Of a stretch of 64,000 nt of DNA, positions 4,816 to 54,300 are shown one piece after another (the stretch's first letter is position 1; every line of letters starts with the position of its first letter). This DNA comes from an uncultured Chromatiales bacterium. Its GTDB lineage: Bacteria; Bacteroidota; Ignavibacteria; SZUA-365. The stretch spans positions 1,459 through 65,458 of the forward strand of contig CAYJMN010000003.1 of NCBI GenBank assembly GCA_964371045.1. Reading direction: 5' to 3'. The notes below the pieces were generated by a model, which did no database searches, was not told where the DNA came from, and saw only the letters and a list, made by a program, of their open reading frames with translations. Position numbers and translations under genes: made by a program.

Positions 4816-5205
4816 GTGACCATGAAACACTACGACCCGGAAATCCCGCCGGTGACCGCCGAGTGGCTTGAGCTTGACGAGGAGCACCGGATACGGCTCG
4901 CAGAGTCCTACCACCGCGCTACGGGCGAGAAATTCCCCAACGTCAAGGTGCACGCGATTATGCACGCCATCATCGAGAACCAGATCGCTGAGGGGCTGGA
5001 ACCAGTGGTCCGTGCAATGCCTCGCCTTGTGATGCAAGGTCTGTCTCGTCACGAAGCAGTGCACGCCATCGCTTCGGTGCTTGGCGAGCACTTCTACGAA
5101 GTAATGAAGACCAAAGACATAGACCTTGCCGCCACAGCGCAAGAGCGCTACCTCGCCGATGTCGAGCGGCTCACGGCCGAAGAGTGGTTTCGCAAGTATG
5201 AATAG
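4816..5205 (+). CDS. hypothetical protein (tandem paralog 2)
   Basis: 129 aa paralog of 4344-4727, with the same leader sequence upstream. Confidence 0.65.
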   Translation: MTMKHYDPEIPPVTAEWLELDEEHRIRLAESYHRATGEKFPNVKVHAIMHAIIENQIAEGLEPVVRAMPRLVMQGLSRHEAVHAIASVLGEHFYEVMKTKDIDLAATAQERYLADVERLTAEEWFRKYE

Positions 5206-11004: not shown

Positions 11005-11319
11005 ATGCAAATTCCAGAACATATCGAAGGTTTTCAGTGGGACCAGGCGAACAAGGAGAAACACAGGACCGGACGCAACGTCGCGTGGCAGGAATGCGAG
11101 GAGGTCTTCTTCAATGTACCGCTCTATACGTATCCAGACCTCAAGCACTCTGAGAAAGAATCTCGGCATGGAGCTCTTGGTCAGACGAACACCGGCAGAC
11201 TGCTGTTCGTCGTCTTCACGGCCCGGGGAACGGTGGTGCGGGTCATCTACGCACGGGATATGAATAAAAAGGAGCGCGAGGTGTACCATGAAAAAGCTCA
11301 AAAAGATTCCAACGTTTAG
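11005..11319 (+). CDS. brnT: BrnT toxin (DUF497 ribonuclease)
   Basis: 104 aa, intact. FQWDQANKEKHRTGRNVAWQECEEVF ... HSEKESRHGALGQTNTGRLLFVVFTARGTVVRVIYARDMNKKEREVY. Confidence 0.85.
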   Translation: MQIPEHIEGFQWDQANKEKHRTGRNVAWQECEEVFFNVPLYTYPDLKHSEKESRHGALGQTNTGRLLFVVFTARGTVVRVIYARDMNKKEREVYHEKAQKDSNV

Positions 11320-11581
11320 GACCGAGGACGAAGAACGAGAATTCTGGGCAACCCACGATTCGACCGAATATATGGACTGGTCGAAGGCGAAACCCACGCT
11401 TTTCTCGAATCTGAAACCGTCGAGCCGAACGATTTCGATTCGACTGCCGGAGTCCTTGCTCGAACACATTAAGCTCCTCGCAAACCAACGGGACGTACCC
11501 TACCAGTCGCTCTTGAAGATTCTGCTGGCGGAGAAGGTTCAGGAGACACTGCAGTCCGGTAAGCGGAAAAGCGTTGCTTGA
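11288..11581 (+). CDS. brnA: BrnA antitoxin (CopG-like)
   Basis: 97 aa. Overlaps brnT by 32 nt. EDEEREFWATHDSTEY...ISIRLPESLLEHIKLLANQRDVPYQSLLKILLAEKVQ. Confidence 0.8.
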   Translation: MKKLKKIPTFRTEDEEREFWATHDSTEYMDWSKAKPTLFSNLKPSSRTISIRLPESLLEHIKLLANQRDVPYQSLLKILLAEKVQETLQSGKRKSVA

Positions 11582-11953: not shown

Positions 11954-12201
11954 TCGATCAACTCCCGCCCGATCCCCTTTCCTTCTTCAAGTTCCAGCAT
12001 CGATGCGAGCAGGCGACGCGCGTTCGCGGGCGAACGCAACAAGTGCACCGTTTCCTCCAACGCCTCGTATTCTTCCAGGGAAAGAACAACGACGCTGTCG
12101 TTGTTGGCGCGTGTGACGATGACCGGCTGATGGTTGCTGCAAACGCCTTCCATTACTTTCGCCAGATTCTGCCGCGCCGCCGTGTATGTTATAGCTTTCA
12201 T
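11950..12201 (-). CDS. yefM: YefM antitoxin
   Basis: ATG at 12201 (cat on + strand). MKAITYTAARQNLAKVMEGVCSNHQPVIVTRANNDSVVVLSLEEYEALEETVHLL. 4-nt overlap with yoeB. Confidence 0.85.
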   Translation of the reverse strand: MKAITYTAARQNLAKVMEGVCSNHQPVIVTRANNDSVVVLSLEEYEALEETVHLLRSPANARRLLASMLELEEGKGIGRELID

Positions 12202-12766
12202 GACAATATCCTGTACATGTACATAATAATGTACGACTGTAATCGGGAAACTCCAACGAGCGTCTTCGAACCGTTGGTGACCCCGGAGGCAACATCGTGA
12301 AACCGTACAAAAGAAGTTGCGGCTGTGAATTCCGGGCAATACGCAGCGAGGGAATTCATTCGACTGAAGTGCAGCCCACGAAGTCCCTCTTTTCGAGCCA
12401 TGCGGCCGACCGCTTTCGCGCTGAAGGAATTGCCTCCCGCCGGGGAGGACCGGATTGTCGAGCTGGTGAAAAAAGGGATGGGCTGAGGTCCGCACGAACG
12501 CTCAATCCACCATCCCCCCACCGCACTTCCTGTGGCTAGCCGACGATTACATCGGTGTGCATCGGTCCGAGCCACGACGGGACATCCCCGCCTGCTTCGG
12601 ATCCGCTAATCCTGTTCTTCATGTCCGGAATTGCATTCCAACTCCGTTCAACATATTTTTACGACTAACCTGTGTTTTTCGTCGTACCCGCTCACATGAA
12701 CCATTAATGACGCACCGAGCCGACGATGGATATCATTCACGTTCGGGGCAAAGGAGTGGAGGAATC

Positions 12767-15157: not shown

Positions 15158-15694
15158 TCAGTCGGATTCTGTGTCGAATCCCTCCAGACGCTCAAGAGCC
15201 TCTCGAGGCGTATCCATGAATAGATAAAGATGGTTTAGGTCATCAGCTAAACTGATGAACCCGTGTTTAAGATAAAACTCTCTGGCCAGATCGTTTTTTG
15301 CATGCGCCTCAATGGCGCGGGCCACAATCTGTTCCGACAATGAAATAGCTCTTTCAATTGCGTCCCACAACAACTCACTCCCATAGCCCTTTTCTCGATG
15401 AGAATTTGATACCGCTAATCGACCTATTCGAACCGCTGGAATTGGATGCCGGGGAAGTCCCTTAACCAACTCTTTCTGAAGGTGGATCGTGTTGATCTCC
15501 GCCATAGCGATCGCATAATAACCCAATATCTCCGATTCATCCTCTTTATGGAGCACGTATGTGACGCTCATCCCCAGCGTCATGTGCTTCCTTGCTCTCT
15601 TGTGTAGAAAGTCATTGAGCTCGGGGACGTCACAATCGAAGCCTTTACGATCAAAGTCTGGGGAGAGCTGTGAAATGCAGCGATCAGAGGCCAT
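15158..15694 (-). CDS. GNAT-family acetyltransferase toxin (TacT-like)
   Basis: 178 aa with an acetyl-CoA-binding-like core (RLAVSNSHREKGYGSELLWDAIERA). Overlaps and sits downstream of a DUF1778 antitoxin gene. Confidence 0.75.
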   Translation of the reverse strand: MASDRCISQLSPDFDRKGFDCDVPELNDFLHKRARKHMTLGMSVTYVLHKEDESEILGYYAIAMAEINTIHLQKELVKGLPRHPIPAVRIGRLAVSNSHREKGYGSELLWDAIERAISLSEQIVARAIEAHAKNDLAREFYLKHGFISLADDLNHLYLFMDTPREALERLEGFDTESD

Positions 15695-16007
15695 GGGATG
15701 ATTTAATCTTCTGTCTGTGGCGCCTGGCAGCTTTTAACAATGCCTTGTTCGGCTTTGCGGGATTTTCCAGCATACGCATAAATATTTCAGAATCGGCTAA
15801 TGAAAGCTCAGTAGCCCGATTCTCGCGTAATACACTCTGGGCGACTTTCAGGCTATTCGACAAAACGAAGCTCATAAGGCTTTGCCCCGTGACTGTAGCA
15901 GCCGCCTCGAGCAGAGTTTTTTGTTTCGCGTCAAGACGAAGATCAATTCTACGGTCTTTTGCTGGTTTCTCGTGTTTATCGTCGATTTGAAGGGCTAGTT
16001 CTTCCAT
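15684..16007 (-). CDS. DUF1778 antitoxin (TacA-like)
   Basis: ATG at 16007. MEELALQIDDKHEKPAKDRRIDLRLDAKQKTLLEAAATVTGQSLMSFVLSNSLKVAQSVLRE is typical DUF1778. Confidence 0.8.
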   Translation of the reverse strand: MEELALQIDDKHEKPAKDRRIDLRLDAKQKTLLEAAATVTGQSLMSFVLSNSLKVAQSVLRENRATELSLADSEIFMRMLENPAKPNKALLKAARRHRQKIKSSHGL

Positions 16008-16093
16008 TTCTATGCTCCTATGCGAAATAATCAGATCAACATGCCGCATTGACTACTGAGTGCAGCAACAGATTGTTTTATCGTCCAATCTAT

Positions 16094-16190
16094 ACGGAGC
16101 AATTCCGTAAACTGACAAGAATAAGGACAGGATACGGAAAATATCCGTAATGATTCAGTCTAACGTCAAGAGTACGGCATATTTCCGTAT
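16094..16190. promoter_or_regulatory. three TACGG-N7-CCGTA palindromes at exact 40-bp spacing
   Basis: tacggagcaattccgta (16094-16110), tacggaaaatatccgta (16134-16150) and tacggcatatttccgta (16174-16190). They lie 87-180 bp upstream of the tacA-like start. Confidence 0.5.
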
Positions 16191-16436
16191 AAGTCAAGAG
16201 TCTTTTCTCCCCCCATTTTTTCCGAGCTGAGGCGTGAGTTCCTGAGATGGGCGGAGTGCGGGGAAGCCTTCTCTTGTTTACAATGCAGCTTTCAAGTCAC
16301 CAGCGATCAAGCAGGAACAGATGATTTTGATGCCCGCTTGATGCTCACTTATTGCCAATGTGGATGCCTTATAACTCCTTTCGCCCCTGCCTCTCATCTT
16401 CGTCGATGGGAGTTTGTCCACCAATATATTCGAGTT

Positions 16437-16865
16437 CTAATCCCACAGGTACCTCGGCATCGTACGGACGAGTTCGTCCGCCTTCGAACGAACCGCTCTT
16501 TCGATCCGCTCAGACGAAACCCCCTGCTCCTCAAGTTCCATCGACTTCGATGTTCGGAGGACAATCGTGAGTGCGACCTGTCTCGCTCTCTTCTCGATCA
16601 TCGTATCAAGAGATGCTTCCCTTGGAATGAGGACGTGGACGAGATCCAGATCAAGAGCATTCGCGGCCTGCCGAAGTGATCTCAACGTGATCGATCCGTC
16701 CGCTTCCCGCTCCTCCATCTCCATCACGCTCTGGGGCGATATCTCCAGCCTGGCCCCAAGTTGACGGAGCGACATCCCGAAGGCAGTCCGAAAGGCATTG
16801 AGCCAGCCTCGTTCCGGAACTGCGGATATCAGATCGGAATGTCTATATTGAGCGTAAATGTTCAT
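16437..16865 (-). CDS. mobile mystery protein A (HTH, TIGR02612-like)
   Basis: ATG at 16865. ...GWLNAFRTAFGMSLRQLGARLEISPQSVMEMEEREADGSITLRSLRQAANALDLDLVHVLIPREASLDTMIEKRARQ. No partner mystery protein B (Fic) gene is adjacent. Confidence 0.7.
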   Translation of the reverse strand: MNIYAQYRHSDLISAVPERGWLNAFRTAFGMSLRQLGARLEISPQSVMEMEEREADGSITLRSLRQAANALDLDLVHVLIPREASLDTMIEKRARQVALTIVLRTSKSMELEEQGVSSERIERAVRSKADELVRTMPRYLWD

Positions 16866-17338
16866 GTTACAGCGGACAATCTGATGAGTATTCCCCTGTT
16901 TCTTGTTGAGGTAATGCAAGCTGTATGGCGTGAAGAGACTACTCCTTGACCCCAGGGACATTCGTTTATCCTCGATCAAGCCTTGCATCGTCAGCAAATT
17001 CCAATTATGTTTGCAACAAGCTGGTTTCAAGCCATATTTGACCCATAATTGGACTGAGTTGGCGGAGCTGGGTGCGTTGAAGAAAACGCACGGTCACAGG
17101 TCGATCAATGCAGCCGCTGATGAATTATCAGGAAACGTCAGGTCACGGAAGTTCAATGACCACGGGAATGCCATGATGTCACAGAAACAAGCATGCGGAG
17201 AATTCAATCCCCATCCGATGATCTCTGAAGTCGGCCAGCGTAATCTCCGTCATGTTTGAGAGTGAGGCCGCAATGATTTTACTGGTTCGTCCAATGATAC
17301 AAATCTCAAACCTGTCCCACAAGAATCACTGAAGTGCC

Positions 17339-53532: not shown

Positions 53533-54300
53533 TCAATCGGGTCGTGATCGATCATGCACCGCCGCATGATTGTTGAACGGGCATGCCGTGGCGAGGCAGT
53601 CCCGGTTGAGCTTGCTGACGCCACAGAGCGTTCTGCCGCGGACCTGCATATTCATACCGTGGGTTTCAGTCAGGAATAGCGCCGCTTCCTCGATCGCGAG
53701 CGAAGTGTCGAGCTTGCAGCAACGCGAACGGACATCCCGGTCGATGCGCTCCATGCTTCGGCTCATCGCACGATTGCTCCACTGGCGGTGGAAATCCGAA
53801 TATTCCGAGGTTTTTGTCAGGACCTCGAAAAATATTCCGCTCCCCGTCGCGGCGCCGCATCCATGTTCGGTTCCGCACTGCCCGTCGTGCACGCACTCGG
53901 CTAGGATGCGCGCTTCACGGAGGCGTATTTCGCGTTCGTCCTCCTCGTCGAACATGTTGCTGTAAGCCGCGAGAAGCGCCGCGGGTACGAGGAAGTGATG
54001 GTCCGCCCCATTCATCCGTACGGAGGGGTGCCGCATCAGAACATCGGCGATGGCAAGGGGATCGCGTTCTGTTGTCCGCATGCAATGCCGCTGGATGAGG
54101 TCCATGGCGGATTGTGTGGCGCAGGTCTCGCACATGGCGTGCGCCGATCCGCATGTGTACCCTTCGCCTGTATCGTCTCCGCAAAACGTGCATGACAACG
54201 CGGGGATAGCATTCCGTGTGTCAAGTGCTTCGTCGCACAGTGCGCACGTCGTCGGATTATGATCGATCGGGACACGATTCCTGATTGGTGGAATTGTCAT
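53533..54300 (-). CDS. Cys/His-rich hypothetical protein (possible metal-binding)
   Basis: 255 aa with many CxxC pairs (CALCDE, CTFCGDD, CETCATQ). Confidence 0.55.
   Translation of the reverse strand: MTIPPIRNRVPIDHNPTTCALCDEALDTRNAIPALSCTFCGDDTGEGYTCGSAHAMCETCATQSAMDLIQRHCMRTTERDPLAIADVLMRHPSVRMNGADHHFLVPAALLAAYSNMFDEEDEREIRLREARILAECVHDGQCGTEHGCGAATGSGIFFEVLTKTSEYSDFHRQWSNRAMSRSMERIDRDVRSRCCKLDTSLAIEEAALFLTETHGMNMQVRGRTLCGVSKLNRDCLATACPFNNHAAVHDRSRPD

Follow-up and report, generated by a model that had tools for sequence, protein, structure and literature searches.

At the locus, a two-gene operon on the minus strand is preceded by a palindrome array and by a third gene of the same orientation; the 64-kb stretch of DNA in which we analysed them is called the window throughout. 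The first gene of the operon (15684–16007, minus strand) encodes a TacA-like antitoxin, a 107-aa ribbon-helix-helix (RHH) protein of the DUF1778/TacA1 type that matches PF08681 at 75.6 bits, against a cut-off of 21 bits. Its likely start is the ATG at 16007, which has a ribosome binding site, AGGAG, at 16019–16015, and eight TacA homologues share the 107-aa length. Relatives in the PDB are KacA (5ZGN), AtaR (6AJM/6GTS) and TacA (7ZG5), with E values of about 1e-9, and the beta strand of the window protein is RRIDLRL (residues 19–25). The second gene (15158–15694, minus strand) overlaps the end of tacA by 11 nt and encodes a 178-aa GNAT acetyltransferase (Acetyltransf_1/7/10) that matches the toxins TacT (5FVJ/7AK8), KacT (5ZGN_C) and AtaT (6GTS/6AJM) with E values from 1e-13 to 1e-23. 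A tyrosine of the KacT Y145 type was sought in the toxin, and the 'FY' of AREFYLKHGF aligns with the 'FY' of 9ILR, its closest PDB relative. By profile and gene order, the operon classifies as a DUF1778/TacA–GNAT type II toxin–antitoxin (TA) module of the TacAT/KacAT/AtaRT type. Gene callers were split on both starts, calling the antitoxin (region 15684–16049) at 107 or 121 aa (P0010) and the toxin either at 178 aa, overlapping tacA, or at 141 aa, starting 100 nt later, a split seen with L134–L141. The 107-aa and 178-aa forms fit the ribosome binding site, the lengths of the homologues and the solved toxins.

The surroundings of the tacAT operon are a TA-rich island. A BrnT/BrnA module (11005–11319 and 11288–11581, plus strand) and a YefM/YoeB module (12201–11950 and 11953–11699, minus strand) lie about 3–5 kb away from it. 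Directly upstream of the yefM-like antitoxin gene, and overlapping it, is a 107-aa open reading frame (12198–12521, minus strand). Gene calls of related contigs include this frame, and a Pfam search with it returned no match.

On the other side of the palindromes lies a gene for mobile mystery protein A, a helix-turn-helix (HTH) protein (16437–17030, minus strand; TIGR02612, 135 bits), which gene callers start at 16961 to give 174 aa. The GTG start of the following frame overlaps its stop codon, and such an overlap is the usual junction of mystery A and B genes. This second frame (16369–16446, minus strand) is a remnant of mobile mystery protein B, only 25 codons long (MGLELEYIGGQTPIDEDERQGRKEL, then a stop codon). 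The remnant aligns with the N-termini of annotated mobile mystery B proteins ('GQTPIDEDERQG' versus 'GQTPLDAEDLEG') before it terminates, and it is 52% identical to the Euzebya protein; an HMM search with these 25 residues, too short a query, returned no match. Mobile mystery protein B is the Fic-type partner of the pair, and its loss has left mystery A an orphan beside the TA cassette. With only 25 codons of B left, the A/B operon is truncated, and its adjacency to the TA sites looks accidental or secondary. We read this arrangement as a TA cassette that carries its own control region and has come, by rearrangement, to lie beside a truncated A/B operon.

Between the remnant and tacA are three perfect palindromes of the form TACGG-N7-CCGTA. 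Site 3, distal to tacA, occupies 16173–16189 and reads TACGGAAATATGCCGTA on the TA-coding (minus) strand; site 2, in the middle, occupies 16133–16149 (TACGGATATTTTCCGTA); and site 1, proximal to tacA, occupies 16093–16109 (TACGGAATTGCTCCGTA). The preliminary description of this DNA had reported three perfect half-site inverted repeats spaced at 40 bp, and our scan of the window bore this out: the sequences it quoted are correct and the start-to-start distances are exactly 40 and 40 bp. It had placed the array at 16094–16190 and 87–180 bp upstream of the tacA-like start. The array is real and does lie upstream of tacA, but its true coordinates are 16093–16189, one base to the left, and its distance from the likely ATG is 85–182 nt. 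It was also right in putting the sites downstream of the mystery A gene, from whose stop codon at 16437 the array is separated by 247 nt. There is no further perfect TACGG-N7-CCGTA elsewhere in the window, and hence no second cluster; allowing a single mismatch added one site, at 54019. By chance, a mean of 0.01 perfect matches is expected in the window, and none of 100 dinucleotide-preserving shuffles contained three or more. The N7 spacers of the three sites are A or T at 5–7 of their 7 positions. Similarity between the repeats is limited to cores of 17–19 bp, and the 23-nt linkers within the locus are unrelated to one another.

The motif corresponds to an operator of known structure. The DNA crystallised with Klebsiella KacA4KacT2 (PDB 5ZGN) is AAATGTACGGTTATTAACCGTACATGA, in which TACGG and CCGTA flank TTATTAA and are themselves flanked by AAATG and CATGA, and a single KacA4KacT2 hexamer covers its two arms (Qian et al. 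2019, PMC6698736). The 5-bp arms of the window motif are identical to those of the 5ZGN DNA, and both have a 7-bp AT-rich spacer. In KacA, R12 and D10 hydrogen-bond to bases, the R8A and R12A substitutions abolish DNA binding, and D10A weakens it (PMC6698736). These three residues align with R20, D22 and R24 of the window TacA and are identical to them, and KacA, AtaR and the window protein have one and the same RIDLRL strand; the overall identity of the window protein to KacA and AtaR is only 32–35%. The kacAT operon of K. pneumoniae likewise has a DUF1778 antitoxin gene followed by a GNAT toxin gene. Its control region differs: it has a single GTACGG...CCGTAC just past the -10 box, where it spans the transcription start, and the promoter answers to the toxin:antitoxin ratio (PMC6698736), whereas the window has three copies, one per 40 bp, with the best-conserved copy between the -35 and -10 boxes. 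The window antitoxin also has the same QRIDLRL strand as AtaR of the ataRT operon of E. coli O157:H7 (6GTS). Accounts of ataRT describe an AtaT-AtaR4-AtaT heterohexamer that places two RHH dimers on one palindrome, and a derepression set by the toxin:antitoxin ratio (Jurenas et al. 2019, summarised in PMC8138530 and PMC6698736). We found one perfect TACGG-N7-CCGTA in each of the E. coli plasmid relatives of ataRT that were examined, as against three in the window. On this match, the motif is one already known, the structurally characterised KacA/AtaR-type operator, here found in a distant uncultured lineage that homologue names and neighbouring T9SS-tail proteins suggest to be Bacteroidota-like.

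Orthologous operons carry the same motif. Eight close antitoxin homologues, 72–100% identical, were used to fetch contigs, and these yielded six independent operons with enough upstream sequence (L121, L123, L124, L125, L130 and L131), whose antitoxins are 72–90% identical; a seventh (P0006; L128 and its duplicate L129) was left out because its contigs end 66 nt upstream. The preliminary description had held that absence of the motif upstream of orthologous operons would speak against its proposal, and we found the motif in all six, in two or three copies with 0–2 mismatches each. The genes upstream of the six operons all differ (DUF362, UbiA with a tocopherol cyclase, a 706-aa protein, a contig end and others). 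Conservation is concentrated in the palindromes. Taking mean pairwise identities between loci in a fixed ungapped register, we obtained 90% for the arms and 95% for the N7 (AAATATG) of site 3, 93% for the arms of site 2, and 37–39% for the 23-nt linkers. Sites 2 and 3 are exactly 40 bp apart in all orthologues, and 10 of the 11 inter-site intervals are exactly 40 bp, the remaining one being 39 bp. That these intervals are kept although the linkers have diverged indicates that the spacing itself is under constraint. Between the last site and the ATG, the orthologues have anything from 26 to 122 nt. Site 1 is kept, with 0–2 mismatches, in L121, L123 and L131, and is absent or degenerate in L124, L125 and L130; lost in half of the orthologues, it may be dispensable, and it looks accessory.

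Conservation also outlines a putative promoter around site 3. A candidate -35 hexamer, TTGACT (16192–16197, minus strand), read from the sequence, lies 2 nt upstream of site 3, and a candidate -10 hexamer, TACTCT (16169–16174, minus strand), takes as its first two bases the last two of the site. The spacer between them is 17 nt and is filled by site 3. At the -35 position, cTTGAC is present in five of the six sequences of alignment A3 and also in L124; at the -10 position the orthologues have TATTCT, TAATCT or TAAACT, with A58 and T62 invariant in A3. We infer from this frame, TTGAC-N17-TAnnCT, that site 3 sits in the core promoter. Should transcription start mainly from this distal promoter, site 2 would fall at about +14 to +30 and site 1 at about +54 to +70, in a leader of roughly 155 nt. 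There may be a secondary promoter around site 1 (16089–16118, minus strand), made up of TTGTCA (16118–16113), an 18-nt spacer that holds the site, and TATAGA (16094–16089). This arrangement is kept in L121, and L123 has TTGTGC-N17-TAATAA; the case for it is weak. A scan for consensus promoters returned a single match, TTGACG-N18-GATATT (16140–16169, minus strand), whose -10 box is within the spacer of site 2. One match against 1.8 expected by chance is not significant by itself, and the putative promoter is assigned from conservation.

To see how widespread such arrays are, we compared further operons and genome collections. Each of five enterobacterial plasmid operons of the KacA/AtaR type (antitoxins 74–100% identical to KacA) has exactly one perfect (G)TACGG-N7-CCGTA(C), and it lies just after a -10-like box; upstream of a Rhizobium homologue 40% identical to KacA there was no TACGG-N7-CCGTA site. 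We then scanned a genome collection for two perfect sites 30–60 bp apart. Of 120 clusters among the matches listed, 113 lie within long open reading frames; most of these have a 15-nt period and come from Actinomycetota, and they look like five-codon repeat proteins that yield the palindrome by chance. Two loci, L034 (Pseudomonadales) and L006 (Poribacteria), were set aside as irrelevant, being GC-rich tandem repeats between genes, with a period of 22 nt in the first and 52 nt in the second, and the cluster at L099, among the matches listed, lies outside a long open frame and is likewise not relevant. The useful loci among the matches listed were L063, L091, L100, L106, L109 and L049. At least four operons whose antitoxin matches PF08681 are immediately preceded by two perfect sites: one of E. 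coli/Shigella, at 55-bp spacing, one of Leclercia, at 38 bp, and two of Cyclobacteriaceae, at 30 bp. The E. coli/Shigella gene is chromosomal, carries the NCBI annotation 'TacA family antitoxin', and occurs in 1370 of 5426 complete E. coli genomes. Like the window, these loci have perfect palindromes upstream of a tacA-GNAT operon, interleaved with promoter elements; unlike it, they have two copies only, and their antitoxins have the beta strands RVELK, RLEIK or RFDAR. A Serratia locus has a pair of sites 58 bp apart upstream of a similar antitoxin open reading frame that is cut by the edge of the locus. The beta strands of the proteins encoded at these array loci follow the pattern R-x-(D/E)-x-(R/K). 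At the two Cyclobacteriaceae metagenome-assembled genome (MAG) loci L100 and L106, the proximal site continues from its right arm into TAcaTTTG or TAtaTTTG, in keeping with the Bacteroidota -7 promoter consensus, TAnnTTTG. The terminal TA of the operator thus seems to double as the start of a -10 or a -7 box across promoter dialects.

One array stands next to a different kind of gene. In a Sphingomonadaceae MAG (L049, positions 5094–5194; JASBUR010000039.1), three perfect GTACGG-N7-CCGTAC palindromes at 42 and 42 bp lie 28 nt upstream of a gene for a 60-aa RHH protein (strand TRVEVRV; NikA-like, below threshold), and this gene is followed by one for a 568-aa GmrSD_N/GmrSD_C nuclease. Here a TacA-type operator array is apparently joined to a defence nuclease and not to a GNAT toxin.

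Multi-site promoters are known from other modules. In Salmonella tacAT, a 75-bp promoter probe contains two binding sites, one in the interval from -81 to -46 and one in that from -46 to -6, and DNA binding requires the TacA-TacT complex; the system is modulated further by TacA acetylation (VanDrisse et al. 2017, PMC5449658). Judged by these probe intervals the spacing is roughly similar to that of the window, with two sites instead of three. A preprint on a Klebsiella plasmid tacAT operon describes two pseudo-palindromes, of a sequence other than the window motif, only one of them being needed. It reports that the TacAT complex there activates its own promoter and does not repress it, so that the direction of regulation cannot be assumed. 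The relBE, phd/doc and ccdAB modules resemble the window in that antitoxin-toxin complexes act on repeated operators and the toxin:antitoxin ratio sets repression; they differ in protein fold or site geometry, and their adjoining sites are contiguous, not 40 bp apart.

Taken together, these comparisons make it very probable that the three palindromes serve the adjacent tacA-GNAT operon as operators and are bound by its antitoxin. The preliminary description had raised such TA-operon autoregulation as one of two readings, and it is supported about as firmly as a sequence-based approach permits, by the match to the KacA operator, the recognition residues, the six orthologous operons and the conserved -35 and -10 boxes. 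By analogy with KacAT and AtaRT, each 17-bp palindrome would take one T-A2-A2-T heterohexamer, in which two RHH dimers would each insert a beta-ribbon (R20, D22 and R24) into the major groove at one TACGG arm, and the AT-rich 7-bp spacer between the arms would be narrowed. With site 3 filling the spacer of the putative promoter, a complex bound there would keep RNA polymerase off. Site 2, 40 bp further downstream, and site 1, 80 bp downstream, would lie in the early transcribed region or in weaker tandem promoters, where they probably add occupancy, cooperativity or a roadblock. Free toxin in excess should weaken the complex and relieve repression, as in conditional cooperativity. In this scheme we infer the binding as such, the positions of the promoters, the direction of regulation and any cooperation between sites.

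The operators might be of the TacA type and yet be read mainly by another RHH regulator encoded elsewhere, with the local TacA contributing little. Cross-talk of this kind is conceivable since TacA proteins with RVELK, RLEIK and RFDAR strands use this motif as well, and the motif also occurs at the short non-TacA RHH gene beside the GmrSD nuclease gene. However, the local TacA carries exactly the recognition residues of KacA, motif and tacA migrate together across genomic contexts, and the window lacks a second cluster of sites; we consider this reading very unlikely.

Slightly less probable again is that the sites serve a dimer of mobile mystery protein A, controlling either read-through from its own operon or the TA operon. 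The preliminary description had named this HTH protein as the other possible binder. A palindrome of 17 bp whose arms are spaced by one helical turn would suit an HTH dimer too, and the mystery A gene is close upstream on the same strand. Yet all six orthologous loci that retain the motif lack a mystery A gene, and the motif matches the operator crystallised with KacA. The sites are, moreover, downstream of the mystery A gene and not at its promoter, and with B truncated to 25 codons the adjacency is secondary. The proposal of mystery A binding is therefore unsupported, and with the neighbouring HTH gene a bystander there is no new regulatory link to propose.

About as improbable is the idea that the palindromes form hairpins, of RNA or single-stranded DNA, within the 5' leader, acting on stability, termination or translation. 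Each could fold as a 5-bp stem with a 7-nt loop, a main promoter at site 3 would put sites 2 and 1 in the transcript, and the minimum-free-energy fold of the leader contains the site 2 hairpin. But that fold is an ordinary one (z = -1.75; a fold as good or better in 8 of 200 shuffles), and the centroid structure of the leader lacks these hairpins. We counted no compensatory pairs in sites 3 and 2, where every departure breaks pairing, which fits a protein reading out the identity of the bases. The arms are conserved in sequence, beyond pairing, and the identical sequence is a solved protein-binding site. A search of Rfam found no family match at the sites, its only return being a sub-threshold snoRNA match away from them. 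Least probable of all is an array of iterons, a binding array for a recombinase or transposase, or a recent tandem duplication with no regulatory role, which the even spacing, the abundance of mobile-type genes (several TA modules) and the broken A/B operon might bring to mind, but against which only the 17–19 bp palindromes repeat while the linkers are mutually unrelated (contrary to iterons or duplication), and in the orthologues it is always tacA, and never a replication or recombinase gene, that travels with the array.

With the palindromes taken as operators of the TA operon, what sets this clade apart is the array of two or three copies in a 40-bp register, its best-conserved copy lying within the spacer of the putative promoter; the three-copy form is a modest lineage-specific elaboration of a known operator. 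TACGG-N7(AT-rich)-CCGTA can serve in annotation as a portable mark of autoregulation of the TacA/KacA/AtaR type far outside Enterobacteria, as in the Bacteroidota-like genomes, the Cyclobacteriaceae and the GmrSD locus described above, with operator copies that vary by lineage between one, two and three, at 30–58 bp. As to the register itself, it is possible, if doubtful, that it reflects a higher-order repressor in which two or three TacA4-TacT2 hexamers touch or are bridged through their terminal toxin subunits on bent promoter DNA, or wrap it. Were this so, operator number and spacing would tune the sharpness of the response to the toxin:antitoxin ratio, by a mechanism unlike the single-palindrome model of KacAT and AtaRT. 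At about 3.8 helical turns, 40 bp is not a whole number of turns, so cooperation on the same face of the helix is not obvious, and other lineages have spacings of 30, 38, 42, 55 or 58 bp. The 40-bp register may reflect contacts between adjacent hexamers or only the architecture of the promoter; the fixed three-site form offers a natural test case for the cooperation of adjacent TA hexamers.

Further observations concern the relatives of the cassette and its upstream edge. The motif is absent at L133, where an antitoxin homologue (42% identical) is encoded without a toxin gene, and a metagenome scan for relatives (alignment A2) returned one distant locus only, L148, leaving six orthologous loci as the sample of the clade. 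Proteins with T9SS tails are encoded near tacA homologues in the fetched contigs. A G/A-rich stretch, GGGGGGAGAAAAGA (about 16201–16216, minus strand), precedes the -35 box by about 4–19 nt; it is partly conserved in the orthologous cassettes (alignment A3, columns 15–30) and may represent either an UP-like element or the left boundary of the mobile TA cassette.
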